Source of the DNA: Alphaproteobacteria bacterium
GTDB taxonomy: Bacteria > Pseudomonadota > Alphaproteobacteria > UBA2966
DNA: 64,000 nucleotides
NCBI GenBank assembly: GCA_964291395.2
Contig: OZ219856.1
Location: 192,001-256,000, forward strand
Direction of reading: 5' to 3'
This document shows positions 29,791 to 45,006 of the stretch, piece after piece (the first letter of the stretch is position 1; each line of letters opens with the position of its first letter). The notes beneath the pieces are model-generated. The model saw only the letters and a program-made list of their open reading frames with translations. It made no database searches and was not told the origin of the DNA. The translations under genes were made by a program, and so were the position numbers.

Positions 29791-30903
29791 ATGCGCGTAT
29801 TGATCTGCGGCGGCGGCGTCATCGGCGCCTCGATCGCCTGTTTCATGAGTGCGCGCGGCGTCGAAACCACCGTGATCGAGCGCACGGGGGTCGCCAACGC
29901 GGCGTCAGGCAAGTCGGGCGGCTTCCTGGCGCTCGACTGGTGCGACGGCTCTCCCGTGGAAGCGCTCGCGCGACGCAGCTTCGCGCTTCACGCGGAACTC
30001 GCCGACAAGACCGATGACGACTGGGGCTATCGGCGCCTCGATACCCTGTCCGTCGTTGCCAGCGCACGCCGCGATGTCGGCATCTATCGGCGGCTCGACT
30101 CTCCGGGCTGGCTGGATGGCGAAACGGCGGTGCGCGCTCGACTCGGCACGACGGAGTCCACCGCGCAGGTCGATCCCGCGGCCTTCACCAAGGGGATGAT
30201 GCGCGCCGCGATCGCGAACGGGGCGCAACTCGTGATGGGGAACGTCACGGGCCTTGCCTTCGCCGGTCCCGGCACGGCGGTGCGAGGGGTCGTGGTGGAC
30301 GACGAGGAGGTGGAGGGCGATGCCGTCGTCATCGCGATGGGACCCTGGTCGGTTCTCGCCTGCCGGTGGCTGCCGCTGCCGGCGGTGTACGGCCTGAAGG
30401 GCCACAGTCTGGTGTTTCGCTACGCACCGCCGGTACGCCCCCATGCGCTGTTCGTGGAGCTCGAGAGCGAAACCGGCGCGGTTGCGTCGCCCGAGGTGAT
30501 ACCCCGCCCCGACGGAACGACTTACGTCTGTGGCCTGTCCAGTGAGGCGCCGCTTCCCGTGGATCCGGGCCGGGTCGCGCCGGACGATGGAGGATGCGAG
30601 AAGCTGCGCGCGATGACCGCCCGATTCGCACCCGAATTGGGCGGCTCGGAAGTTCTCGCTGCCCAGGCGTGCTATCGCCCCGTCGCCCAGGACGGTCTGC
30701 CGCTCATCGGCCCCATATCCGGAGTCGACGGCGCGTTCGTGGCGACGGGCCATGGCGTTTGGGGCATGCTGAACGGCCCCGCTACGGGCGAAGCCGTCAC
30801 CGAATTGATCGTCGATGGGGCTGCCAGCACGGTGAATCTGGCGCCTTTCGACCCGTCGCGATTGGCGCCGCTGGAAGCGACCGCCGTGCGAGCGGAAGCC
30901 TGA
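29791..30903 (+). CDS. FAD-dependent oxidoreductase (DAO family)
   Basis: GGGVIG, ASGKSGG, GPWS, ATGHGVWG..NGPATG. Confidence 0.9.
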   Translation: MRVLICGGGVIGASIACFMSARGVETTVIERTGVANAASGKSGGFLALDWCDGSPVEALARRSFALHAELADKTDDDWGYRRLDTLSVVASARRDVGIYRRLDSPGWLDGETAVRARLGTTESTAQVDPAAFTKGMMRAAIANGAQLVMGNVTGLAFAGPGTAVRGVVVDDEEVEGDAVVIAMGPWSVLACRWLPLPAVYGLKGHSLVFRYAPPVRPHALFVELESETGAVASPEVIPRPDGTTYVCGLSSEAPLPVDPGRVAPDDGGCEKLRAMTARFAPELGGSEVLAAQACYRPVAQDGLPLIGPISGVDGAFVATGHGVWGMLNGPATGEAVTELIVDGAASTVNLAPFDPSRLAPLEATAVRAEA

Positions 30904-31866: not shown

Positions 31867-34800
31867 ATGAGCGGAAAAGCGGCCGGCGACGGGCGCTGGC
31901 ATTTCTGGATCGACCGTGGCGGCACGTTCACCGACGTCGTCGCCCGTTCGCCGGAAGGACGAATCACGACCCGCAAGCTCCTGTCGGAGAATCCGGAACA
32001 CTACGGGGACGCCGTCCTCCAGGGAATCCGGGATGTCCTCGGGCTCGAACCGGCCGCTCTCCTCCCCCACGGGCGGATCGCCGGTATCAAGATGGGCACC
32101 ACCGTGGCGACCAACGCGCTGCTCGAACGTCGCGGCGATCCCACCGTCTGGGTCACGACGCGTGGATTCGGAGACATGCTGCGGATCGGCTACCAGCAGC
32201 GTCCCGATCTCTTCGCCCTGAACATCGTCTTGCCCGAGCCCGTCCACGACCGGGTGATCGAAGTTGCCGAACGGGTCATGGCGGACGGCACGATCGACGT
32301 ACCGCTCGACGAGGACGGCGCCGAGCGTGAGCTCGAGGCCGCCTTCGAAGCGGGTTACGGATCCGTCGCCATCACGTTCATGCACGGATACCGCTATCCC
32401 GATCATGAACGGCGGATTGCCCGGATCGCCCGGCGCCTCGGCTTTTCCCAGGTTTCCGTGAGCCATGAAGTCAGTCCGCTGATCAAGTTCATCTCGCGGG
32501 GCGATACCACGGTGGTGGACGCCTATCTCTCGCCCATCCTGCGGCGTTACGTCGACACGGTCGCCGCGGACGTCCTGACCGACGGCAGCGGCATGCGGTT
32601 GATGTTCATGCAGTCGAACGGCGGGCTCACGGACAGCAGCATGTTCCAGGGCAAGGATTCGATCCTGTCGGGACCGGCCGGCGGAGTCGTGGGTGCCGCG
32701 CGCACGTCGCGCATGGCGGGCCTGGACAAAATCATCGCCTTCGACATGGGCGGCACGTCGACCGACGTGTCGCACTTCGCCGGCGAGTTCGAGCGCAGCC
32801 TCGAAACGGAGGTCGCGGGCGTCCGAATGCGAGCGCCCATGCTCTACATCCACACGGTCGCCGCGGGCGGTGGCTCGATCCTCCATTTCGACGGCGCGCG
32901 CTACCGGGTCGGCCCCGATTCCGCCGGTGCCGATCCCGGCCCGGCCTGCTACCGGCGGGGCGGTCCGCTGACGATCACCGACTGCAACGTCATGCTGGGG
33001 CGCATCGTGCCGCGGTTCTTCCCGGGCGTGTTCGGCTCGGGACAGGATGAGCCCCTGGACGATCGGGTGGTGGCCGAGAAGTTCACGATTCTCGCTTCCG
33101 AAATCACGGCCGCGACCGGCGACCGGCGCTCCCCCGAAGCGGTGGCGGAAGGATTCCTCACCATCGCCATCGAGAACATGGCGAATGCGATCAAGAAGAT
33201 TTCTCTGCAACGGGGATACGACGTTTCCGAATATGCGCTGTGCTGCTTCGGCGGCGCCGGAGGACAGCACGCCTGCCGCATCGCCGACTCGCTCGGCATG
33301 CGAACCGTGTTCATCCACCCGCACGCCGGCGTCTTGTCCGCTTACGGCATGGGTCTCGCCGATATCGTGGCGATGCGCGAGCGATCCATCGAGACGCGTC
33401 TCGACGAGACGGCGATGGAAAGCCTGACAGGCGTCATCGCTGCATTGGAGGCGGAAGCCGTCGGAGAGTTGCGGGAGCAGATCGGGACGGAGGCGGCGGT
33501 GACCGTCGAGCGCCGGGTCCTGATCCGCTATGACGGTACGGACTCGGCGCTGACCGTGGACTTTGGCGCCGCAACCGAGATGACGACCGCGTTCGAGGCG
33601 CTTCATCGCCAGCGCTATGGGTTCGTCACGCCCGACAAGCCCTTGATCCTCGAAGCCGCCGTCGTCGAGGCACTCGGAGGTGCCGCCGATATCGAGGACC
33701 CACAGATCGACCGGGAAGGGGAGGGTCGAACCGGCGCGTCCGTGCCGAGGATTGCCGAAACATCGGTGTTCATGGACGGCGGACGCCGCACCGTGCCCGT
33801 CGTCGACCGCGCCGGCATGCTTCCGGGCGACATCGTGGAAGGTCCGGCAATCATCGTCGAGCCGCATGGCACCAACGTGGTCGAGGACGGCTGGCAGGCC
33901 CGCCTGACGAACCGGGGTCACCTCATGCTGGACCGGGCGATGCCGGCCGAGGAGTCGGTCCGCCTGCGGACGGCGGCGGATCCGGTCATGCTCGAGGTGT
34001 TCAACAACCTGTTCATGTCGATCGCGGAGCAGATGGGAGCCGCGCTGACCAACACGGCCTATTCGGTCAACATCAAGGAGCGCCGCGACTTCTCGTGCGC
34101 CTTGTTCGATTCCGAGGGCCAACTGGTCGCCAACGCTCCGCACCAGCCGGTGCATCTGGGATCGATGAGCGAGAGCATCGCCGCGGTGATCCGCGGCCGC
34201 CGCGACACCATGCGGCCCGGCGAGGTCTACATGCTGAATGCGCCCTACAACGGCGGAACCCATCTTCCCGACGTCACGGTGGTGCGGCCGGTCTTCGACG
34301 ACGCGGGACAACAGGTGATCTTCTACGTGGGGGCCCGCGCTCACCACGCCGACATCGGCGGCCTGACGCCCGGTTCCGTGCCGCCCGACTCGCGCGTCGT
34401 CGAAGAGGAGGGCGTCCTGATCGACGACTTCCTGGTGGTGGAGAACGGCGTGTTGCGCGAGCGGGAGACGCGGGATCTGTTCGCTTCGGGCCGGTACCCG
34501 TCTCGGAACGTCGATCAGAACCTGGCCGATCTCACGGCGCAGATCGCCGCGTGCGAGACGGGTGTCCGGGAACTCGCGCGGATGGTCCGTCACTACGGTC
34601 TCGACGTCGTGCGGGCCTACATGGGGCACGTGCAGGACAACGCGGAAGAGCTGGTACGCCAGGTGCTGGGTGTGCTCGCCGGCGGCGAGTTCGCGTACCC
34701 GATGGACAACGGCGCCGAGATTCGCGTGCGCATCGACGTCGACCGCGGGGCGCGCCGGGCGACCGTCGATTTCACCGGCACGTCGCCGCAGCAGCCCAAC

Positions 34801-35526
34801 AACTTCAACGCGCCGACGGCCGTCTGCAAGGCTGCCGTGCTGTACGTGTTCCGCTCGCTGATCGATGACGACATCCCGCTGAACGCCGGGTGCCTCAAGC
34901 CGCTCGACATCATCGTGCCGGAGCGCTCGATGCTGGCCCCGGAATACCCTGCCGCGGTGGTCGCCGGGAACGTCGAGACCTCGCAATACGTCACCGACAC
35001 CTTGTTCGGCGCGCTCGGCACCTTGGCCGCGTCACAGGGGACCATGAACAACGTCACCTTCGGAGACGGCACCTGGCAGTATTACGAGACCAATGCCGGA
35101 GGCGCCGGGGCGGGCCCCGGCTTCGACGGCGCCTCGGTCGTCCAGACCCACATGACCAACGGCCGACTGGCGGATCCCGAAATGCTCGAATGGCGATTCC
35201 CGGTCCTCGTCGAATGCCTGCGCATCCGTAACGGCTCGGGCGGTCGCGGTCGCTACGTCGGCGGAGACGGGTCCCACCGAAGGTTACGCTTCCTGCGGGA
35301 CATGACGGGAGCCATCGTGTCGTGCCATCGAAAGGTTCCGCCTTACGGCATGGCGGGGGGCGAGCCCGGCGAAGTCGGCAGGACGTGGGTGGAGCGCACC
35401 GACGGGACCACCGTCGAGCTGGAGGGCTGCGACCAGGTCGAGATGACCGCGGGTGACGTCTTCGTGCTCGACACGCCGTCGGGCGGCGGCTATGGGCCGC
35501 CCGCGGAGCGCTCACCTCCGCAATAG
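31867..35526 (+). CDS. oplA: 5-oxoprolinase (fused hydantoinase A/B)
   Basis: [44 protein letters not shown]. Confidence 0.9.
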
Positions 35527-35563
35527 CCGCGGCCGGTCGGCGTGCCGAGCCGGTTCGCCGGGG

Positions 35564-36547
<984 letters not shown>

Positions 36548-36744
36548 TCGAAGCTCCTGTGGGTTGGGCGGCGGCGCAGGGTGTCACAGGGGCCGGGTTC
36601 CGCTCAAGCGGAGGCGAGTCGGAAGGTTCTCTCGACTCATGGACCGCAGGGACCGGTCCGGCCGGATGGACTCCATCGATTTGAGTCGCGGGCCTGCAAC
36701 TCCCGAGACCGACATGCGCTCGTTCGGGAAACCGTGCGATGCGT

Positions 36745-36774
36745 GACTAGGCGAGACTAGGCGAGACTAGCCGA
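36745..36774. repeat. 10-bp tandem repeat x3 (GACTAGSCGA)
   Basis: gactaggcga-gactaggcga-gactagccga. Confidence 0.8.
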
Positions 36775-37114
36775 GTCGGCGCCGTCGCTCCGCCTCATGC
36801 GAAATCTCCCATGGGTGAATGGGCGGACGCGAGAGGAAACGCCCGTCTCTTGGCGTTCCGCCCCCCGTTTCCGTGCCCCGCCCCGGCCTCTGCGCAGAGC
36901 GCAGGCGGTCGACGCGGCGCATGCGCGCGCATGTCATGTACTCGACGCGAAGACGTCGTTCGTAGCCGTAGTCGAGCCTAGGGCCGCACAGGGTGTGTCT
37001 CGGCGAGTGCCTGTTGCAGCCGGTCGAGATGGACCACACGTCGATCACCGTCGACCCGGTCCGGAAAGATGCGGCGCAGTCCGAAGCCGCTTTGAGCGGT
37101 GCTTCGCGCGCTCG

Positions 37115-37320
37115 ATCCGAGCAGTGGGTCGCGTCCTGCGGAACTGTCTCCAGCGTCCGGGTCACCACCTCGACAATCTTGTCGTCGCCGATCTTACGGG
37201 GAGCGCCGGGTCGTGGCTCGTCGTCGAGGCCCTCAAAGAAGCGGCGCCGCAGGTGCCGACGGTCAGCCGCGACACGCCCAGCTTCTCCGCAATCGCCGTG
37301 TTGCTTAGCCCCTCCGTCGC
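37115..37320 (-). mobile_element. IS630-family transposase remnant (N-terminal HTH region)
   Basis: Minus strand reads EGLSNTAIAEKLGVSRLTVGT.RRRFFEGLDDEPRPGAPRKIGDDKIVEVVTRTLETVPQDATH; no DDE domain follows. Confidence 0.8.
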
Positions 37321-37498
37321 CCGGGTGGGCGGCTTAGCCGCGGGTAGGTCTCTCCCGCCATATTGCCGTCATTTTTCTACGAAGAATAACGGCAATATGG
37401 CGGGCATCGGCGAGTCAATGACGCGACCCGGACGCCTCGGAGTGATGACAGGTGAACGGGTTCTGCGTTAGCGTTCCAGGGGCGGTGCGGAATCTCAA

Positions 37499-38284
37499 AT
37501 GAAGTTGTCTGACGCGCAGATCGAACGGTTCGAGAACGACGGGTTCCTCGTCCTGCCGTCCGTGTTCACGCATGACGAGGTCGACGCGCTGAAATCGGAC
37601 CTGCCGCGACTGTTCGCCGAACGCCGGCCGGAAAACTTCAGGGAGAAGGAGAGCGACGCCGTGCGCACGGCGATGGCCCTGCACCAGCGCAGCGACGTCT
37701 ACGCGCGTCTGGTGCGCCACCCGCGCCTCGTGGAGCCTGCGAAACAAATCCTCGGCGATGACCTCTACATCCAGCAGGTCAAGGTGAACGCCAAGGAGGC
37801 CTTCTCCGGCGACGTCTGGCAATGGCACTACGACTTCGCCACCCATCACGAGGAGGACGGCGTGCCGGAGCCGCTGGCGCTCAATCTCCATATCCTTCTC
37901 GACGAGGTAACCGAGTTCAACGGACCCCTCGTGTTCATTCGCGGCTCGCACCGGCGTGGTCCCGTGCCCGCGGCCTTGGACACCGAGACGACCAGCTACC
38001 CGCTCTGGGTCGTCGATCGCGAGGCCGTGGCCGAGCTGGTGGCGGAGGGCGGCCTGGTCTCGGCCAAGGGGCCGCCCGGCACGGTGCTCATTTTCGGCGA
38101 CACGCTGGTGCACGGCTCGTCGATCAACATGTCACCCTGGCCGCGCACGATCTTCTCCCTGATTCTCAATCCCGTGTCCAACGCCTTGACCCGCTACCGA
38201 CGACCGGAGCACCAGCACCATCGGGACCTCGGCGCGGTGGTGCCGCTCGCCGACGACTGCCTGATCGCGGGGGCGGCCGCGTGA
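37499..38284 (+). CDS. Fe(II)/2-oxoglutarate dioxygenase, PhyH family (EctD/proline hydroxylase-related)
   Basis: WQWHYDF (HxD), NGPL, VHGS..N.SP.PR. Confidence 0.9.
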
Positions 38285-39564
38285 GCGAGCCCCACGCCGG
38301 CTACTTCAGCGCATCGTTGGCGGAGGCGGATTCGGAGGTGGCCGCGGCCATCGCCGGCGAGGCGGCCCGCCAGAACGACCAGATCGAGCTGATCGCCTCC
38401 GAGAACATCGTCAGCCGGGCGGTGCTGGAAGCCCAGGGTTCGATACTCGCCAACAGGACCGTCGAGGGGTACCCGGACGGGCGCTATCACGGCGGGGCGG
38501 CGAACGTCGATGTCATCGAAAAGCTGGCGGTGGACCGCGCGCGCCGGTTGTTCGGCTGCGCGTTCGCCAACGTGCAGCCCCACTCGGGGAGCCAGGCCAA
38601 TCACGCCGTCCTCCTGGCCCTCGTCAAGCCCGGCGAGGCCCTTCTCGGCATGGATCTGGCGGCGGGCGGACACCTGAGTCACGGGGCGGGGGCCAACCTT
38701 TCCGGCAAATGGTTCGACGCCCGGCACTACGGCGTGCGGCGCCAGGACGGGCTGATCGACTACGACGAGGTGGAGCGCCTGGCCGCCGAGCACCAGCCCA
38801 AGCTGATCATTGCCGGCGGTTCGGCCTACCCGCGCGTCATCGATTTCGGACGGTTCCGCGCGATCGCCGACGACTGCGGTGCTTCCCTTCTCGTCGACAT
38901 GGCGCACTTCGCCGGGCTCGTGGCCGGCGGCGTGCACCCGAACCCCGTGCCCTACGCCGACGTGGTGACCACGACGACTTACAAGAGTCTGCGCGGCGCC
39001 CGGGGTGGACTGATCCTGACCGACGACCCAGCGCTTGCGCGGAAGCTCGATTCCGCGATGTTCCCCGGACTCCAAGGCAGCCCGCTGTTGCATGCCGTCG
39101 CCGCGAAGGCGGTGTGTCTCGGCGAGGCGTTGCGGCCGGAATTCAAGGACTACGCGAAACGCGTGCTGGAGAACGCCCGCGCCCTGGCGGACGCGCTCAT
39201 CGCGGGCGGTCTCTCCCTGGTGAGCGGCGGCACGGACACGCCGCTCATGCTGGTCGACTTGCGGCCCCTCGAGCTTACGGGAGATGCGGCGAGCGCCAGT
39301 CTGGAGCGGGCCGGCCTCACCGCCAACAAGAACGCGATCCCGTTCGATCCGAAGCCGCCGACGGTGACGTCGGGCCTGCGCCTCGGCTCCTCGGCCGGTA
39401 CGACGCGGGGTTTCGGGACGGCGGAGTTCAAGCTGATCGGGGAGACCATCGTCGAGGTCTTGAAGGGTTTGCGGACGTCGCCGGACGACAACGGTGCCGT
39501 CGAAGCCGCCGCGCTCTCCCGCATCGGCGCCTTGAGCCGATCCTTCCCGATCTATACGGCGTGA
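38281..39564 (+). CDS. glyA: serine hydroxymethyltransferase paralogue (alpha-methylserine hydroxymethyltransferase-like)
   Basis: ELIASEN, NVQPHSG, GGHLSHG, DMAH, GLRLG; variant motifs RTVEGY..RYHGG and TTTTYKS; GTGA overlap with upstream gene. Confidence 0.88.
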
Positions 39565-39653
39565 CGGCGCGAGGCCCGTGAAATTCGCCGGGGATCGCGG
39601 TCCTGCCGCTCCGCTCGCAGCTCGGACACTTCATGCTCGGCATCACCCGGAGG

Positions 39654-40238
39654 TCAGTCCTGCGAAGGCCTTCCCAGGATGTCCGTGACGGAAACGACCT
39701 TCGCGAATCGCGTGCCCATCGTGCGCAGCGAAGGTTCGTGCATGTCGCCCATGCGGGCACCCGTGGCCTCGCGCGGGATCACGACGCGGTAGTCGAGGCT
39801 GTCGGCGTCGCGCACCGTCGACTCGACGGCCCAGTTGGTCGACGTGCCGACGACGATCAGGCGCTCCACACCCAGGCCGCGCAGCACCCAGTCGAGATCC
39901 GTGCCGAAGAACGCGCTCGGACGTTTCTTCGTGATGACGATGTCGTGGTCCCGCCGCCCCACGTCATCGCAGATGTCGGCGCCCCAGCTTCCGTCGACGA
40001 GACGGCCGGCCATCTCGTCCGCCGACTCGCGGACCGACAGGGGGGCGTCGATGTAGCCCGGCCGGAAGGCCATGCGGATCCAGATCACCGGGATGTCCCG
40101 ACCGTGCGCCCAATCGACCATGGTACGAACGGCGGCGAGGAGCCCCTCGGCCACCTTGGGCAGATCACCGCCGAGCGTGCCCTTCGGATCGAGCACTTCC
40201 TTCTGGACGTCGACGACGAGAAGAGCGTCTTGCGGCAT
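39654..40238 (-). CDS. isochorismatase/cysteine hydrolase family protein
   Basis: ALLVVDVQ, KKRPSAF.GTDL, STNWAVESTVRDA (Ala at the usual catalytic Cys position). Confidence 0.88.
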   Translation of the reverse strand: MPQDALLVVDVQKEVLDPKGTLGGDLPKVAEGLLAAVRTMVDWAHGRDIPVIWIRMAFRPGYIDAPLSVRESADEMAGRLVDGSWGADICDDVGRRDHDIVITKKRPSAFFGTDLDWVLRGLGVERLIVVGTSTNWAVESTVRDADSLDYRVVIPREATGARMGDMHEPSLRTMGTRFAKVVSVTDILGRPSQD

Positions 40239-40279
40239 CTGATTTCCTTCACAATCCGGCGCGGGCATGAGGCCCCACG

Positions 40280-41377
40280 CTACAGGACCTGCTCGGAGCG
40301 GGCCGGCCGAGTTTGCGCCTGTCCGGATGCGTCCCTCGGCATTTCTTCGAGAACCGCCCGCACCGCATCCGCGGCTTCCTCTACGTCGGCGCTGGACACG
40401 TCGAGATGCGTCACGGCCCTGAGCCGGCGCTGCGAGACGGCGGTGATGCGTACGCCCCGTTCCTCCAGTCCCGTCTGCATGGCCGGTGCGGAGATGCCGC
40501 TTCGGGATACGTCGAAGAAGATCATGTTGGTCTGCACGGTGTCGAGGTCGACGGAGATTCCCGGCAAGTTGGCCACTCGTTCCGCGAACACGCGCGCGTT
40601 CGCGTGATCCTCCGCCATGCGGTCCACATGGTTCTCCAGGGCGTACAGGCCGGCGGCGGCGATGACGCCTGACTGGCGCATCGCACCGCCGAGACGCTGT
40701 TTCCACCGCCAGATTTCGTGGATAAATTCAGTCGACCCTGCGAGAACCCCGCCGATGGGACAGCCGAGGCCCTTGCTGAGGTCGATCCACACCGAATCGA
40801 ACGGCGCGGCTTGATGCCCGGCCGGCACGCCCGTCGCGACCACGGCGTTCATCAGCCTGGCGCCGTCCATGTGAAGGGCGAGATCGTGTTTCCTGGCCAC
40901 TTCGGCCACGGCCCGAATCGTCCCGAGCGGCCACACCGTCCCCCCGCCCGCGTTCGACGTTTGCTCCACTTCGACCAGTCGGCTGCTCGGCGCGTGACGT
41001 CTGGACGGTCGGATGGCCTCCTCAAGTTGGTCTGGGCCGTAGATGCCGTTCCGGCCGTCGAGCGGCCGGACCATCGCCCCGAACATGGCGAGCGCGCCGG
41101 ACTCGGCGTTGATGATGTGCGACGTGCGATCGCAGATGATTTCGTCACCGGTGCGGCAGTGGACGGCGATCGCGGCGATGTTGCACATGGTGCCCGAGGG
41201 CATGAGGACGGCCGCTTCCTTGCCGAGCAGCTCCGCCACCGTTTCACCGAGTCTGATGGTCGTGGGGTCCGTCATCGACTGCTCGTCACCCAACTCCGCG
41301 GCCATCATGGCTTCCTTCATGCCCGGCGTCGGCCGGGACTGGGTATCGCTGTGCATGTTGATGTGAATGTCAGCCAT
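40280..41377 (-). CDS. low-specificity L-threonine aldolase family protein
   Basis: SDT, PSGTMCN, HMDGAR, LSKGLGCPIG, GGAMRQSG. Confidence 0.92.
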   Translation of the reverse strand: MADIHINMHSDTQSRPTPGMKEAMMAAELGDEQSMTDPTTIRLGETVAELLGKEAAVLMPSGTMCNIAAIAVHCRTGDEIICDRTSHIINAESGALAMFGAMVRPLDGRNGIYGPDQLEEAIRPSRRHAPSSRLVEVEQTSNAGGGTVWPLGTIRAVAEVARKHDLALHMDGARLMNAVVATGVPAGHQAAPFDSVWIDLSKGLGCPIGGVLAGSTEFIHEIWRWKQRLGGAMRQSGVIAAAGLYALENHVDRMAEDHANARVFAERVANLPGISVDLDTVQTNMIFFDVSRSGISAPAMQTGLEERGVRITAVSQRRLRAVTHLDVSSADVEEAADAVRAVLEEMPRDASGQAQTRPARSEQVL

Positions 41378-41676
41378 CGTCAGATCCCTTCGGCTTCCGC
41401 CTCCGCCGGTCTTCGTAAGTCTGTCGGCGAGAAGGTACAAACGTAAGCGATCGACGTATTTTGGCAAACAGTGCGGCGGGGTTGGGGTGGGATCGGTCTC
41501 CTCGTACATCGGCTCGAGGCTGCGCGAATGATCTTCTGGGCTGGCTGGTCGTCATCCCTCCGTCAACTGCACCGACTTGTCCAACGGCGTCCAACGGCGC
41601 GGCAGCAATGGCGATCCCTGCCACGATCAACACCCTGCGATGACGGGCGTCCTTAAGCGGGAATCTCGCCCTCCGT

Positions 41677-42225
41677 CTACTCAGATAGGAAGTCCTTCAC
41701 CTCGGAGATCGCCTTCTCGACTTCCATTTCGGAATACTTGGGCTTCAGAGCCATCACATGCTTGGCAAGTTTCCTGTCGTCTTCAAATTCGTCCTGCGGC
41801 GCGTGTCGGCGCAGATAGGTGATCGTAGAAACGAGCTCCAGGCCTTTCGCCGTTCTATTCCCGAAAGCCGCCAATACTTCGTCGATGGCTGCCCGGTTTT
41901 GCTTCAAAAACTCTCGCCCCTTCCCGATCATTCGTTCAGTGTGCTTGCCGGGTTCGATCAGGTAATGGTTGTCCCGACTGTCATAACGAATCGTCGCGCC
42001 ACTGCTGTTTGCAATTACATCCAAATCACCGGCGAGACTGATCGAATACGGCCCATAGGTATAGAAGGAAAAACGATAGCCCGTATCGACGCCTCCCAAT
42101 TCCTGGATGAGATGCACTTTCTTCTGAAGCGCCTTCTTTCCGAGCTGCTGGCGGTGCCGCTTGGCTTGGTCGATCAGAAATGCGACCAGAGCATATTGAT
42201 CGATCTTTCCCGTTATTCCTGTCAT
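41677..42225 (-). CDS. YwgA/Panacea (DUF4065)-like protein
   Basis: GKKALQKKVHLIQ..YRFSFYTYGPYS..L..DL..LELVSTI; lower GC. Confidence 0.7.
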   Translation of the reverse strand: MTGITGKIDQYALVAFLIDQAKRHRQQLGKKALQKKVHLIQELGGVDTGYRFSFYTYGPYSISLAGDLDVIANSSGATIRYDSRDNHYLIEPGKHTERMIGKGREFLKQNRAAIDEVLAAFGNRTAKGLELVSTITYLRRHAPQDEFEDDRKLAKHVMALKPKYSEMEVEKAISEVKDFLSE

Positions 42226-42321
42226 GATGAGTCCCCTAAATTCTCCGTCCATGTCGGACGGTCGCCTCGGCATCCCGGCGATTTCCCTCTGGCACGTAGA
42301 GTCGGCGCTGGTTGACTCTGA

Positions 42322-43515
42322 TCAGTCCGGCAACGACGGGAGACAGCGTCTGTAGAGGTACTGAACGCTGGCGCCGCCCGAAGTGCGCCATACCTTGATC
42401 TCCTCCGATCCCGACTTGTACCAGGACTTCTCGGCGTCGCGGACGACACAGCCGTGCGGTTCGAGTTTATCTGCGAGCTCCTCTACGTCGCTTATCTCAT
42501 CGTCGGTGACGATTTCGGGAGTTGCGAAGACCATCCGGTAGTGTTTTCTGGACGTGAGGATTTCACCGTGATCGCCTGCCTTTCCTTCGGCAATTAGACC
42601 GAGCACCTTCCAGTCATCCCATTTGAGATAATCGGCGACCGCGGCAGGAGACGGAAATACGCCGCCCGTGCTCGCAAGCAGGTCCTTCAAACACTCGATC
42701 AGGTGATAGTCGTAGATGGTCCGCGTCTTGTGGAAATAGAGCTGCGTAAACATCATAAAGCGAGCGATCAGCAGTCCTTCGACAGCATGGACGCCGTCCT
42801 CCTCGACGCCGATGTGGTGACCTTCCGTTTCAGGGTCTGGGCAGAGGCGCAAGGTATGGACCACTCTGTCTAGGTCGTATCGCCCGTACTGCACGCCGGC
42901 GTGATAGGCATCGCGCAGTAGGTAATCCATCCGATCGGCATCCATCTGTCCGGAGACGAGGTCCTTCCAAACCAACACACCTGCCGAGTGAGCCGGTGTC
43001 TCAAAGATTTCGAGAATGTCCTTGACGTGAATCCCGTTTGCTCTCGACTCCGGGTGGTTCTCGATTAGATCGTTCAGACACAGTCTCAACGCTGCGGCCG
43101 AGTAGTCCTCGTGCTCGTATCGGTTGGAACTGCCGGGCTTGAGGGGCAGGAGTTCCTCGGCCGCATGTGAGAACGGACCGTGACCAAGATCGTGCAGCAA
43201 GGCTGCTAGGCGCATAATTCTCCTCTGGCGCCCCAAGCTGGCGTCGTCAAATCCGTAATCTCCGCTGCAAAGGACGTTCCGGCTTCGGCGCAGCAACGCG
43301 TCGAACATTCGTGATGCGACGTGCATGACGCCGAGCGAATGCCCGAATCGGGCATGTGTCGCGCCAGGATAGACCATGTCGGTCCAGCCGAGTTGACGAA
43401 TCCTGCGGAGTCGCTGAAAAACCGGTTGGTTGATCACGTCCCATTCGAGTTGATTCAGGCGAATGAATCCGTGAACGGGATCCCGGATCTCATACGGCTC
43501 TAACGGGTCGCTCAC
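42322..43515 (-). CDS. HD-domain phosphohydrolase (YwfO/SAMHD1-like dNTPase fold), probable frameshift near 3' end
   Basis: RDPVHG, FQRLRRIRQLG, HARFGHSLG, LLHDLGHGPFSH, DADRMDYLLRD, YFHK. Confidence 0.9.
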   Translation of the reverse strand: MSDPLEPYEIRDPVHGFIRLNQLEWDVINQPVFQRLRRIRQLGWTDMVYPGATHARFGHSLGVMHVASRMFDALLRRSRNVLCSGDYGFDDASLGRQRRIMRLAALLHDLGHGPFSHAAEELLPLKPGSSNRYEHEDYSAAALRLCLNDLIENHPESRANGIHVKDILEIFETPAHSAGVLVWKDLVSGQMDADRMDYLLRDAYHAGVQYGRYDLDRVVHTLRLCPDPETEGHHIGVEEDGVHAVEGLLIARFMMFTQLYFHKTRTIYDYHLIECLKDLLASTGGVFPSPAAVADYLKWDDWKVLGLIAEGKAGDHGEILTSRKHYRMVFATPEIVTDDEISDVEELADKLEPHGCVVRDAEKSWYKSGSEEIKVWRTSGGASVQYLYRRCLPSLPD

Positions 43516-43545
43516 GCTACTTCCCAGGGAAACACCTAGCAACCA

Positions 43546-43574
43546 AATTTGTTCACGATTTGTACCAATGTCAA
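43546..43574 (-). promoter_or_regulatory. candidate sigma70 promoter for HD gene
   Basis: TTGACA-17 bp-CAAATT, about 30 bp before the GTG start. Confidence 0.4.
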
Positions 43575-43689
43575 GATACAAGATGTTGAGGTCACAGCTA
43601 TCACGACTGCCAATTTGTAGCAATCCGCGTCAAGTGACCGACACGGAAACGGTTGATGCCGTTCTCGATGTTTTCGGACCGGCCGATCA

Positions 43690-45006
43690 TCAACCGAACA
43701 GCACTTCCGGCAGCCACAAGGCCAGTTGCGGAAACATCAGGAGGCAGCTCAGGCCGATGAGCTGGATCACCATGAACTGGACCATTCCGGCGTAAATGTC
43801 GCTGAGCTCCCAGCTCGGAACGACGCCCTTGATGTAGTACGCGGAGAGGGCGACCGGGGGTGACAGCCAGGCGGTCTGCAGACACACGGCAACCAGGGTG
43901 CAGAACCACAGAATGTCGATTCCGAGCGCTTTCACGAGGGGCAGCACGATCGGCACGATGATGATGACGATCGGCACCCACTCCAACGGCCAGCCCAGCA
44001 CGAAGATGAAGCCGAGCAGGGTCAGCAGGATGACCATCGGATTGAACTCCAGGCCCAGCAGGGACTCGGCGATCATCGTGGCGGTGCCGAGTCGCGAGAA
44101 CACCGCGCTGTAGAGGTTCGATCCCACCACCAGGATGGAGACCATGCTGGACGTGAGGATGGTCCGGTAGGCCGCCTGTTTCAGACCCTCGAGCGTGAAG
44201 CGCCGATAGAGGACGGTCAGCACGAAGGCGCCGAAGGCGCCCATCGCCGCGGCGTCGGTCGGGGTCGCGAGACCCCCCAGGATGCTGCCGAGCACGGCCA
44301 GAATCAGTACCGCGAGGGGAATGATCCCGAAGAACAGCTCCCGGACCATCTCGAGGGCCGACTTCGCCCGCTCTTCGACCGGCAGGGCCGGGCCCAGGGC
44401 GGGATTGACGTAGCTGCGAATCAGGGCGTAGGCGGTATACAGCCCGGCCAGGACCAACCCCGGCATGACGGCGGCGGCAAACAAGTCCGTGATCGGGACA
44501 CCGACGATGGGCCCCATCACGACCAGCATGACGCTCGGCGGGATAAGCATGCCGAGCGTCCCGCCCGCGGCGATCGCGCCCGCGCTCAGGCGGATGCTGT
44601 AGCCGCTTCTCTCCATTACCGGGCCGGCCATCACGCCGAGGATCGTCACCGATGCGCCCACGACGCCCGTGGCGGCGGCGAACAGCGTGGCCGTCGCCAG
44701 GACGGCGATGTAGAGAGAGCCCTGGATCCCCGCGAGCAGCAGCCGGAAGCCGTTGAACAACCGGTTCATCAGCCCCGCCTGTTCCAGGAGATAGCCCATG
44801 AAGAGGAACAGCGGCACGGCGGCGAACAGCGGCTCGCTCATTACCTGAAAGGCGTGCAGGACCATCAGATAGAACACCGGGGCGCCGAACCCGATGACGC
44901 CGAAGACGATCCCGAGGAAGATCAACGTGAACGAAATCGGAAAACCGACGCAGATGCCGATGAATAGAGCGGCGAGCGAGACGAGTCCGAGGGTCTCGGA
45001 ACTCAT
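43690..45006 (-). CDS. dctM: TRAP transporter large permease
   Basis: AVPLFLFMG, GGTLGMLIPPS, ATPT, LSPPV. Confidence 0.93.
   Translation of the reverse strand: MSSETLGLVSLAALFIGICVGFPISFTLIFLGIVFGVIGFGAPVFYLMVLHAFQVMSEPLFAAVPLFLFMGYLLEQAGLMNRLFNGFRLLLAGIQGSLYIAVLATATLFAAATGVVGASVTILGVMAGPVMERSGYSIRLSAGAIAAGGTLGMLIPPSVMLVVMGPIVGVPITDLFAAAVMPGLVLAGLYTAYALIRSYVNPALGPALPVEERAKSALEMVRELFFGIIPLAVLILAVLGSILGGLATPTDAAAMGAFGAFVLTVLYRRFTLEGLKQAAYRTILTSSMVSILVVGSNLYSAVFSRLGTATMIAESLLGLEFNPMVILLTLLGFIFVLGWPLEWVPIVIIIVPIVLPLVKALGIDILWFCTLVAVCLQTAWLSPPVALSAYYIKGVVPSWELSDIYAGMVQFMVIQLIGLSCLLMFPQLALWLPEVLFG

Follow-up and report, generated by a model that had tools for sequence, protein, structure and literature searches.

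Iron(II)- and 2-oxoglutarate (Fe/2OG)-dependent hydroxylation of an amino acid, followed by pyridoxal phosphate (PLP)-dependent cleavage between Cα and Cβ, is the work of known enzyme pairs such as trimethyllysine (TML) hydroxylase with the hydroxytrimethyllysine (HTML) aldolase/serine hydroxymethyltransferase (SHMT), and GntD with GntG (guanitoxin). α-Methylserine hydroxymethyltransferases (MSHMTs; EC 2.1.2.7) of Paracoccus, Aminobacter, and Ensifer are said to have been described by Nozaki et al. Here, we analyzed a 64,000-nt stretch (the window) of a sponge-associated alphaproteobacterium of the UBA2966 lineage (contig OZ219856.1, positions 192,001 to 256,000; assembly GCA_964291395.2, labeled G000; 4.16 Mb, three contigs, 98% complete), in which the gene of a PhyH-family Fe(II)/2OG dioxygenase overlaps that of an accessory SHMT paralogue. 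We tentatively favor the explanation that the two genes form a translationally coupled catabolic module, which would hydroxylate its substrate next to Cα and then remove one carbon by means of the SHMT. A first-pass annotation made from the DNA letters had proposed this pair as a new catabolic route for 2-aminoisobutyrate (Aib), an interpretation that is partly supported by the present analysis.

The TML and GntD-GntG pairs yield glycine and a large aldehyde from amino acids with an α-hydrogen, whereas the active site of the SHMT described here points to α-substituted donors. Another parallel is the Aib pathway of Rhodococcus wratislaviensis (AibH1H2GF monooxygenase, AibD/E, and AibC), in which, as set out in passages of PMC7782822, Aib is likewise hydroxylated to α-methylserine before an SHMT-family PLP enzyme acts. 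The hydroxylase of that pathway has a dinuclear metal site, as the first-pass annotation had stated, together with an amidohydrolase fold and ferredoxin partners, and its AibC is a decarboxylase working after two dehydrogenase steps; such partner genes were not seen at our locus. In passages of a paper on the degradation of tris(hydroxymethyl)aminomethane (TRIS), a plasmid gene named mSHMT converts 2-hydroxymethylserine to D-serine (PMC10848231). Searches of full-text literature, with subscription journals mostly outside their reach, returned no account of a 2OG-dependent hydroxylase coupled with an mSHMT-type enzyme, of an SHMT clade bearing the tyrosine described below, or of a 2OG-dependent Aib hydroxylase; the sole link found between Fe/2OG enzymes and Aib was TqaL of fungal Aib biosynthesis. 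mSHMTs and PhyH-type amino-acid hydroxylases are each already known; their coupling appears to be undescribed.

An accessory hydroxymethyltransferase with an altered active site

The GTG start codon of the SHMT gene and the TGA stop codon of the dioxygenase gene share four bases, as read directly from the sequence, and the GTGA overlap noted before is confirmed (Table 1). Such an arrangement suggests translational coupling of the two genes. Database homologues match both protein lengths (261 and 427 amino acids [aa]), and a long open reading frame (ORF) listed from 37822 is merely an upstream extension of the SHMT frame. The window is GC rich (0.57 to 0.69 in 2-kb windows); picking ORFs by length or by GC content at third codon positions miscalled some genes in such DNA, and tblastn and Pfam matches were used for loci instead.

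The SHMT is a full-length protein of the bacterial type (491 bits against Pfam SHMT; 548 bits against NF000586). Its Thr60, His70, and Tyr234, the last of them directly before the PLP lysine Lys235, stand at the positions of canonical Tyr55, Tyr65, and His228, the number 228 being the one that we take the canonical histidine to bear. The alignments to the solved SHMTs 3ecd, 4j5u, and 6ymd, which show LTNKYAEGYPGKRYYGG, T(S/T)TTHKTLRGPRGG / TTTHKTLRGPRGG at the altered motifs, confirm the three substitutions (Y55T, Y65H, and H228Y) read in the first-pass annotation. The best-scoring SHMT locus of each of 30 related genomes is canonical in every case (RYYGG/RYYAG and T/STTHKT); of these loci, 26 gave a match to the KYAEG pattern and the other four did not. 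Aligned to the solved enzymes, the window SHMT keeps the Glu of VEGYP, SGSQAN, DMAH, Lys235, NKN, and RLG. We take the roles of these motifs to be those of the Escherichia coli and Bacillus stearothermophilus enzymes, in which the Glu of VEGYP and NKN presumably serve the folate reaction.

The two tyrosines have a documented meaning. A passage of a review (PMC6411801), the source of the E. coli numbering Y55/Y65, equates them with Thr60 and His70 of MSHMT, describes them as governing donor specificity, and reports that the Y55T mutation lets SHMT use D-Ala and D-Ser. The window SHMT has precisely Thr60 and His70. The earlier claim that the three substitutions typify EC 2.1.2.7 therefore holds for Y55T and Y65H, on the strength of that passage and of the Teo1 enzyme with three plasmid homologues (below), but not for H228Y, a position at which mSHMTs have Thr.

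In Pseudomonas hunanensis Teo1, the mSHMT of the TRIS pathway (CP131128.1 glyA2), which adjoins dsdA, folD, purU, and dsdX, shares 57% identity with the window SHMT and has the motifs NKTVEGYPGKRFHGG and TCTTTK. Its T/H/T pattern returns in plasmid homologues from Paracoccus aminophilus, Ensifer adhaerens, and Ruegeria, and all four sequences read NKT[VL]EGYP..RFHGG. A D-serine ammonia-lyase gene lies near the P. aminophilus gene, where it is the only such neighbor, and near the E. adhaerens gene, which is itself followed by folD and purU. The window SHMT resembles these enzymes in its fold, in the Thr/His pair, in its accessory status next to a housekeeping SHMT, and in the motifs GGHLSHG and QGS, which are common to its clade and the mSHMT-type proteins and replaced by GGHLTHG and QGG in a canonical match. 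Unlike them, it has Tyr instead of Thr before the lysine and RYH instead of RFH, belongs to a clade of its own, and is partnered by a dioxygenase and not by D-serine dehydratase, folD, or purU, a company that is a habit of the family and not its definition; its mSHMT-like activity is a prediction. All matches in a plasmid search with the window SHMT were at most 65% identical.

Thr55 and Tyr228 recur in 67 of the 120 best database matches to the window SHMT, most of which also have His65. Together with the window SHMT and five loci, these proteins form one clade of 73 rows in a quick tree (SH-like approximate likelihood ratio test, 100), so the active-site changes are not a matter of chance. 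The mSHMT group fell outside all else in that tree, the search for which was poor; a tree constrained to join the T55/Y228 clade with the mSHMTs had a higher likelihood and was not rejected (approximately unbiased test, p-AU 0.96). A careful maximum-likelihood tree (57 rows) unites the 22 canonical SHMTs in a single clade (100/98), opposite all T55 proteins, mSHMTs included; its root is unsure because the long-branch outgroup joins the longest T55 branch, and its known mSHMT rows are the genetically implicated Teo1 enzyme and homologues, not purified enzymes. We read the window SHMT as a probable member of a wider T55 family, to which the known mSHMTs also belong, within a subclade marked by Tyr before the lysine.

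This enzyme is not the housekeeping SHMT of its host. G000 has two SHMT-family matches, the window gene and a GcvT-SHMT fusion whose divergent SHMT domain has the THK of canonical enzymes. Four of the five other genomes of the genus (98 to 100% complete) have the fusion and no further SHMT-family match; in the fifth, G003, it is accompanied by a canonical SHMT and by the same pair of dioxygenase and SHMT. We therefore rejected the idea of a housekeeping glyA with odd residues, since four of the five congeners live without the gene. The first-pass annotation was right on this point; the separate canonical glyA that it had looked for in this genome is not there, the other copy being the fusion, a candidate for the housekeeping SHMT in these organisms. 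Long frames similar to the fusion (895 to 932 aa) occur in G185, G263, and G320. Across the class, a degenerate pattern for TTTYKxLRG, run on 400 other sampled genomes with no match in the reversed control, detected the variant SHMT in 10. A higher-scoring canonical SHMT is clearly also present in eight of these; of the remaining two, one has canonical fragments at contig ends and one (82% complete) showed the variant alone. With congeners that have the fusion alone and with the canonical best loci of related genomes, the window SHMT is accessory, and it has neither the Tyr55, Tyr65, and His228 of canonical GlyA nor the standing of sole or main SHMT of its genome.

The dioxygenase and the recurrence of the gene pair

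The dioxygenase scores 111 bits against Pfam PhyH (PF05721; cutoff, 22) and has the HxD...H triad, the Arg, and the jelly-roll fold that mark this family. Its closest solved relatives in a PDB sequence search are the trans-3/4-proline hydroxylase H11 (186 bits), the L-leucine 5-hydroxylase GriE (170 bits), and EctD (150 bits). An AlphaFold2 model (mean predicted local distance difference test score, 81.6; built with 34 homologues) matches the folds of GriE (Z 28.6), H11 (Z 27.5), EctD (Z 25), and human PhyH (Z 21); 7e01 and its relatives were identified from the fold-search titles. The likeness to GriE, H11, and EctD thus comprises the fold (Z 25 to 28.6 over about 245 to 250 residues), the triad, a length of about 260 aa, and the signature region W-x-W-H-x-D-[FY]-x-[TF]-x-H-x-ED-G-x-P, which occupies residues 107 to 123 and is aligned to WEWHQDYTFWHHEDGMP in H11. 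Unlike these enzymes, the dioxygenase shares only 32 to 38% identity with them in structural alignments, scores under the EctD cutoff, and falls into a separate, large set of orthologues (more than 120 clusters at 69% identity or higher). His110, Asp112, His205, and Arg216 are unchanged across 34 homologues and, by analogy, are the putative iron and 2OG ligands.

Because of these sequence scores, fold ranking, and invariant residues, the enzyme is predicted to be a free-amino-acid-type hydroxylase of the GriE/H11/EctD subgroup and not EctD. The latter identity was rejected on the EctD equivalog TIGR02408, against which the protein scores 164.8 bits, far under the cutoff of 336.5. A diverged EctD-like signature without ect genes nearby had been noted before, and both parts stand: none was found among the neighbors scanned (29.8 to 46.9 kb of the window). 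Pfam Ectoine_synth (EctC) had no match genome-wide in a search run without a positive control. Automatic names given to homologues in the source databases are "proline hydroxylase" and "ectoine hydroxylase." G000 has 16 PhyH-family matches above the Pfam cutoff versus none in 14 control genomes, a marked expansion of the family.

With the dioxygenase as the metagenome query, and with only loci of at least 450 nt of downstream sequence counted (14 loci being too short for this purpose), the SHMT gene lies directly 3' of the dioxygenase gene in 16 of the 52 loci whose dioxygenases are at least 60% identical to that of the window. By identity class, this order was found in 1 of 11 loci at 80% or more, in 7 of 13 at 70 to 79%, in 8 of 28 at 60 to 69% (three more have an SHMT elsewhere in the locus), and in none of 14 below 60%. 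In 11 of 21 linked metagenome loci, the two genes meet at zero offset, in the manner of the GTGA overlap, and the start/stop overlap is retained across pairs that are 62 to 85% identical. With the SHMT as the query, 77 of 80 species-genome loci are canonical, and the variant type occurs in two (L060 and L061). These two belong to one metagenome-assembled genome, on two contigs, and each has the dioxygenase gene directly upstream of an identical SHMT; both copies have DDE/Mutator-type transposase genes on their flanks, which means that the two genes can move together.

The pair also extends beyond these loci. In the class sample, a dioxygenase 64 to 66% identical to that of the window precedes the SHMT in two further families (L147 and L149); in L149, a divergently oriented LysR gene and a TRAP transporter are close by. 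The congener G003 (locus L012) has the same gene order, and L163 reproduces that of the window from the DAO-family gene through the aldo/keto reductase (AKR), dioxygenase, and SHMT genes to the isochorismatase gene. Four linked loci (within L165 to L172) have RidA upstream and DUF4743 and MatE downstream. Over 17 linked loci, the only gene families common to all are those of the pair itself. Among readable sequences, residue 65 is His in 14 of 19 dioxygenase-linked SHMTs versus 1 of 9 unlinked ones, the remaining five linked enzymes keeping Tyr65; because the sequences are kin, this association is a tendency and not a statistical test. The pair is recurrent but facultative: the conservation that the first-pass annotation had asked to see holds beyond close kin but gives way among the most similar dioxygenases.

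A side observation concerns the SHMT type at L151, where a T55/Y228 enzyme adjoins a Cas9-like gene (RuvC_III and HNH domains), cas1, and cas2; this type of SHMT can therefore also be found in settings that have nothing to do with the dioxygenase.

Genomic neighborhood

Table 1. Location of the gene pair, its neighbors, and related loci (window positions unless a genome or locus label is given)
Feature	Location	Strand	Details
PhyH-family Fe(II)/2OG dioxygenase	37499..38284	+	ATG 37499, TGA 38282-38284; 261 aa
Accessory SHMT paralogue	38281..39564	+	GTG start 38281; 427 aa
Gene overlap GTGA	38281..38284	+	Start GTG and stop TGA
FAD-dependent DAO-family oxidoreductase (glycine oxidase/D-amino-acid dehydrogenase-like)	29791..30903	+	Pfam DAO, 171 bits
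Fused hydantoinase A/B (oxoprolinase-like)	31867-35526	+	1219 aa; between DAO-family and AKR genes
AKR	35564..36547	-	Pfam Aldo_ket_red, 259 bits; divergent from the pair
Extra segment	36694-37430		About 737 nt, between AKR and dioxygenase genes
Motif of about 50 nt	36733-36784		About eight genome copies
ORF of extra segment	36797-37471		224 aa; no Pfam/NCBIfam match
Isochorismatase-family hydrolase	39654..40250 (start approximate)	-	Pfam Isochorismatase, 135 bits (residues 161-341 of long ORF); convergent with SHMT
GntG-family/low-specificity threonine aldolase (PLP)	40280..about 41380-41509 (start approximate)	-	NF041359, 352 bits (cutoff, 230)
198-aa ORF beside 433-aa HD-domain protein	41677-43623	-	Weak DarG antitoxin C-terminal match (34.7 bits; cutoff, 250)
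GcvT-SHMT fusion	G000:C1:1772934-1775612 (L002:151-2829)	+	892 aa; Pfam GCV_T 263 bits, SHMT 106 bits
Dioxygenase-SHMT pair	L060:3-1855		Transposase flanked
Dioxygenase-SHMT pair	L061:9219-11275		Transposase flanked
Dioxygenase and AlaX-M-type gene	L158:6824-8582		No SHMT
Dioxygenase and AlaX-M-type gene	L184:6900-8598		No SHMT
T55/Y228 SHMT with cas genes	L151:156-6189		

We treat the genes around the pair as context only. The DAO-family protein scores under the cutoffs of both NCBIfam ThiO (96 bits) and D-amino acid dehydrogenase (67 bits) and is a possible consumer of a D-amino acid; its counterpart in L163 adjoins the AKR gene at 75% identity. The AKR gene is syntenic (74% identity) only in the close relatives L012 and L163. 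The hydantoinase A/B protein scores far under the caprolactamase and acetophenone carboxylase cutoffs and is not at that position in L163. On the other side of the pair, the isochorismatase-family gene is 87% identical in L163, and the GntG-family aldolase had no tblastn match in any related locus.

The spacer between the AKR and dioxygenase genes, 223 nt in L012 and L163, is enlarged in the window by the extra segment, which one contig of DNA run X2 omits (joint of 36693 to 37431). A multicopy mobile element was ruled out in G000 as the nature of this segment. A promoter and terminator scan of positions 35400 to 41700 gave no promoter-like site and one terminator-like site versus 2.8 expected. 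The DNA of the window is contained in sponge-metagenome runs, and contigs of the RNA-library run X19 cover both genes and their neighbors partially and at low depth, although such contigs are not proof of transcription. Farther downstream, the ORF with the weak DarG match and the HD-domain gene lie in or beside the lowest GC of the window (42001 to 44000, 0.566), possibly a small foreign island.

Predicted pathway, competing explanations, and significance

In the catabolic module that we tentatively favor, the PhyH-family enzyme would hydroxylate a small free amino acid on the carbon adjoining Cα to give a serine-like product with a second substituent on Cα; in the simplest case, Aib would become α-methylserine. 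The SHMT paralogue, with its Thr/His pair and a pocket of the D-Ala/D-Ser type, would then transfer the hydroxymethyl carbon, most likely to tetrahydrofolate (THF), and release a D-amino acid, e.g., D-alanine. Gene context hints more weakly at a third step, in which the DAO-type flavoenzyme (window and L163) or RidA (four loci) might help to dispose of the D-amino acid, by way of its imine, as a 2-oxo acid and ammonia. The substrate and all of this chemistry are predicted, the second step from active-site residues; Aib is one candidate, and no sequence feature singles it out. We favor this module because the nearest solved relatives of the dioxygenase all hydroxylate free amino acids or ectoine, the donor-specificity residues Thr and His match those of MSHMT, and the catalytic residues of both enzymes are kept. 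It is further favored because the window SHMT shares derived states with the mSHMTs and, in the careful tree with its unsure root, lies on their side, the SHMT is accessory, the pair is recurrent, and His65 goes with linkage.

Several observations weigh against this module. To our knowledge, no enzyme in the dioxygenase subgroup hydroxylates a methyl group attached to a quaternary carbon. The window SHMT reads TTTTYK, without the Thr found before the PLP lysine in the four mSHMT-type sequences, and folD and purU were seen neither in the window, nor in 15 variant loci searched with Pfam, nor among the families common to the 17 linked loci. The most similar dioxygenases (81 to 85% identical) mostly lack an SHMT partner, and 10 of the 11 loci at 80% or more have no SHMT in the available sequence. 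Conversely, 10 genomes have the SHMT type without an adjacent dioxygenase: four (G185, G008, G011, and G050) have no match at E ≤ 1e-50, three have only paralogues of 47 to 51% identity, and the remaining three have a 63 to 74% identical copy elsewhere. The contexts of unlinked SHMT variants are unrelated to one another (EF-P, gyrB, hemB, Cas9, RidA with an aminotransferase, and alanine racemase with RidA), and the flanking DAO-family and AKR genes are conserved in close relatives only. SHMT-less dioxygenase genes have other neighbors, i.e., a BCCT transporter (L156), a TRAP transporter (L164), or a group of AlaX, threonine-dehydratase homologue, and EamA (L158 and L184). In the latter two loci, an 82% identical dioxygenase is followed by an opposite-strand AlaX-M-type alanyl-tRNA editing protein and, beyond it, by a threonine-dehydratase family protein (PRK06110, 493 to 496 bits, above cutoff), which may be an alternative partner for the hydroxylated product. 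This neighbor counts against the module because it needs an α-hydrogen, and α-methylserine has none.

The same neighbor fits a different chemistry, a somewhat unlikely one in our judgment and the main rival, in which the dioxygenase would β-hydroxylate an ordinary amino acid with an α-hydrogen and the SHMT would carry out a folate-free retro-aldol cleavage to glycine and an aldehyde, to be reduced by the AKR, on the pattern of the TML and GntD-GntG pairs. Hydroxylation of the carbon adjoining Cα is the reaction of EctD and of the 3-hydroxylating mode of H11. Consistent with such a cleavage, the AKR gene is divergent from the pair in the window, L012, and L163, a GntG-family aldolase gene lies 0.7 kb off, the threonine-dehydratase homologue beside the dioxygenase in L158 and L184 also acts on β-hydroxy amino acids, and five of the 19 linked SHMTs keep Tyr65. 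However, the Glu of VEGYP and NKN, which presumably serve folate chemistry, are retained, and neither the AKR nor the aldolase is conserved beyond close kin. The Thr/His pair, moreover, is documented in the passage of PMC6411801 for α-substituted donors and not for larger β-substituents.

It is distinctly unlikely that there is no joint pathway, i.e., that a proline or ectoine hydroxylase-like dioxygenase acts alone and the SHMT is a spare serine/glycine isozyme placed downstream by chance. The dioxygenase gene has no SHMT gene directly downstream in 36 of the 52 loci at 60% identity or more, the SHMT type often occurs without the dioxygenase, and the automatic database names are those of proline and ectoine hydroxylases. 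Chance placement, however, is hard to square with a start/stop overlap that persists across divergent pairs, with a pair that moves as a unit between transposases, with two families as all that the 17 linked loci share, and with the enrichment of His65 in linked SHMTs; the score under the EctD equivalog cutoff likewise speaks against an ectoine hydroxylase.

We consider it improbable that the SHMT paralogue acts on the same substrates as a folate-independent α-methylserine aldolase of the Ralstonia, Variovorax, and Bosea type, with release of free formaldehyde. The residues that we take to bind folate are conserved, which argues against such an enzyme. Nevertheless, folD and purU were not seen beside the pair, the Tyr234 clade stands apart from the mSHMTs that depend on folate, and SHMT-like α-methylserine aldolases exist, as passages of PMC7918591 report. 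Very improbable, finally, is a biosynthetic role, in which the SHMT would build α-methylserine from D-alanine and methylene-THF for the dioxygenase to tailor into a secondary metabolite, or a variant with an AibC-like decarboxylase: mSHMT reactions are reversible and used for synthesis (passages of PMC7918591), and the SHMT homologue AibC is a 2-amino-2-methylmalonate decarboxylase (passages of PMC7782822), but the neighborhoods scanned hold no nonribosomal peptide synthetase, polyketide synthase, or other biosynthetic genes, the module recurs beside transporters and regulators (LysR and TRAP in L149; RidA and MatE in L165 to L172), and no conserved dehydrogenase pair for a malonate intermediate accompanies it.

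Returning to the catabolic module, a much broader version of it is doubtful, namely, a widespread and undescribed Fe/2OG route for α,α-dialkyl amino acids (Aib and isovaline, e.g., from fungal peptaibols) in which the Tyr234 clade would yield D-alanine. If this were true, no 2OG-dependent enzyme before the dioxygenase would have been found to hydroxylate a methyl group attached to a quaternary α-carbon, and the Tyr234 clade would be a second and much larger family of methylserine hydroxymethyltransferases, spread over sponge symbionts, soils, and marine sediments.

To conclude, our analysis defines a large clade of SHMT paralogues with Thr55, mostly His65, and Tyr228, whose members are called glyA by annotation pipelines and are never clearly the sole SHMT of a genome. 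The clade carries the residues that switch the donor from glycine to D-alanine or D-serine, and enzymes of this kind are sought for making α,α-dialkyl amino acids. It is also tied to an orthologue group of free-amino-acid hydroxylases that pipelines mislabel as ectoine or proline hydroxylases. Should the substrate be Aib or a relative, the pair would represent a second, mechanistically different bacterial solution to the breakdown of amino acids without an α-hydrogen.

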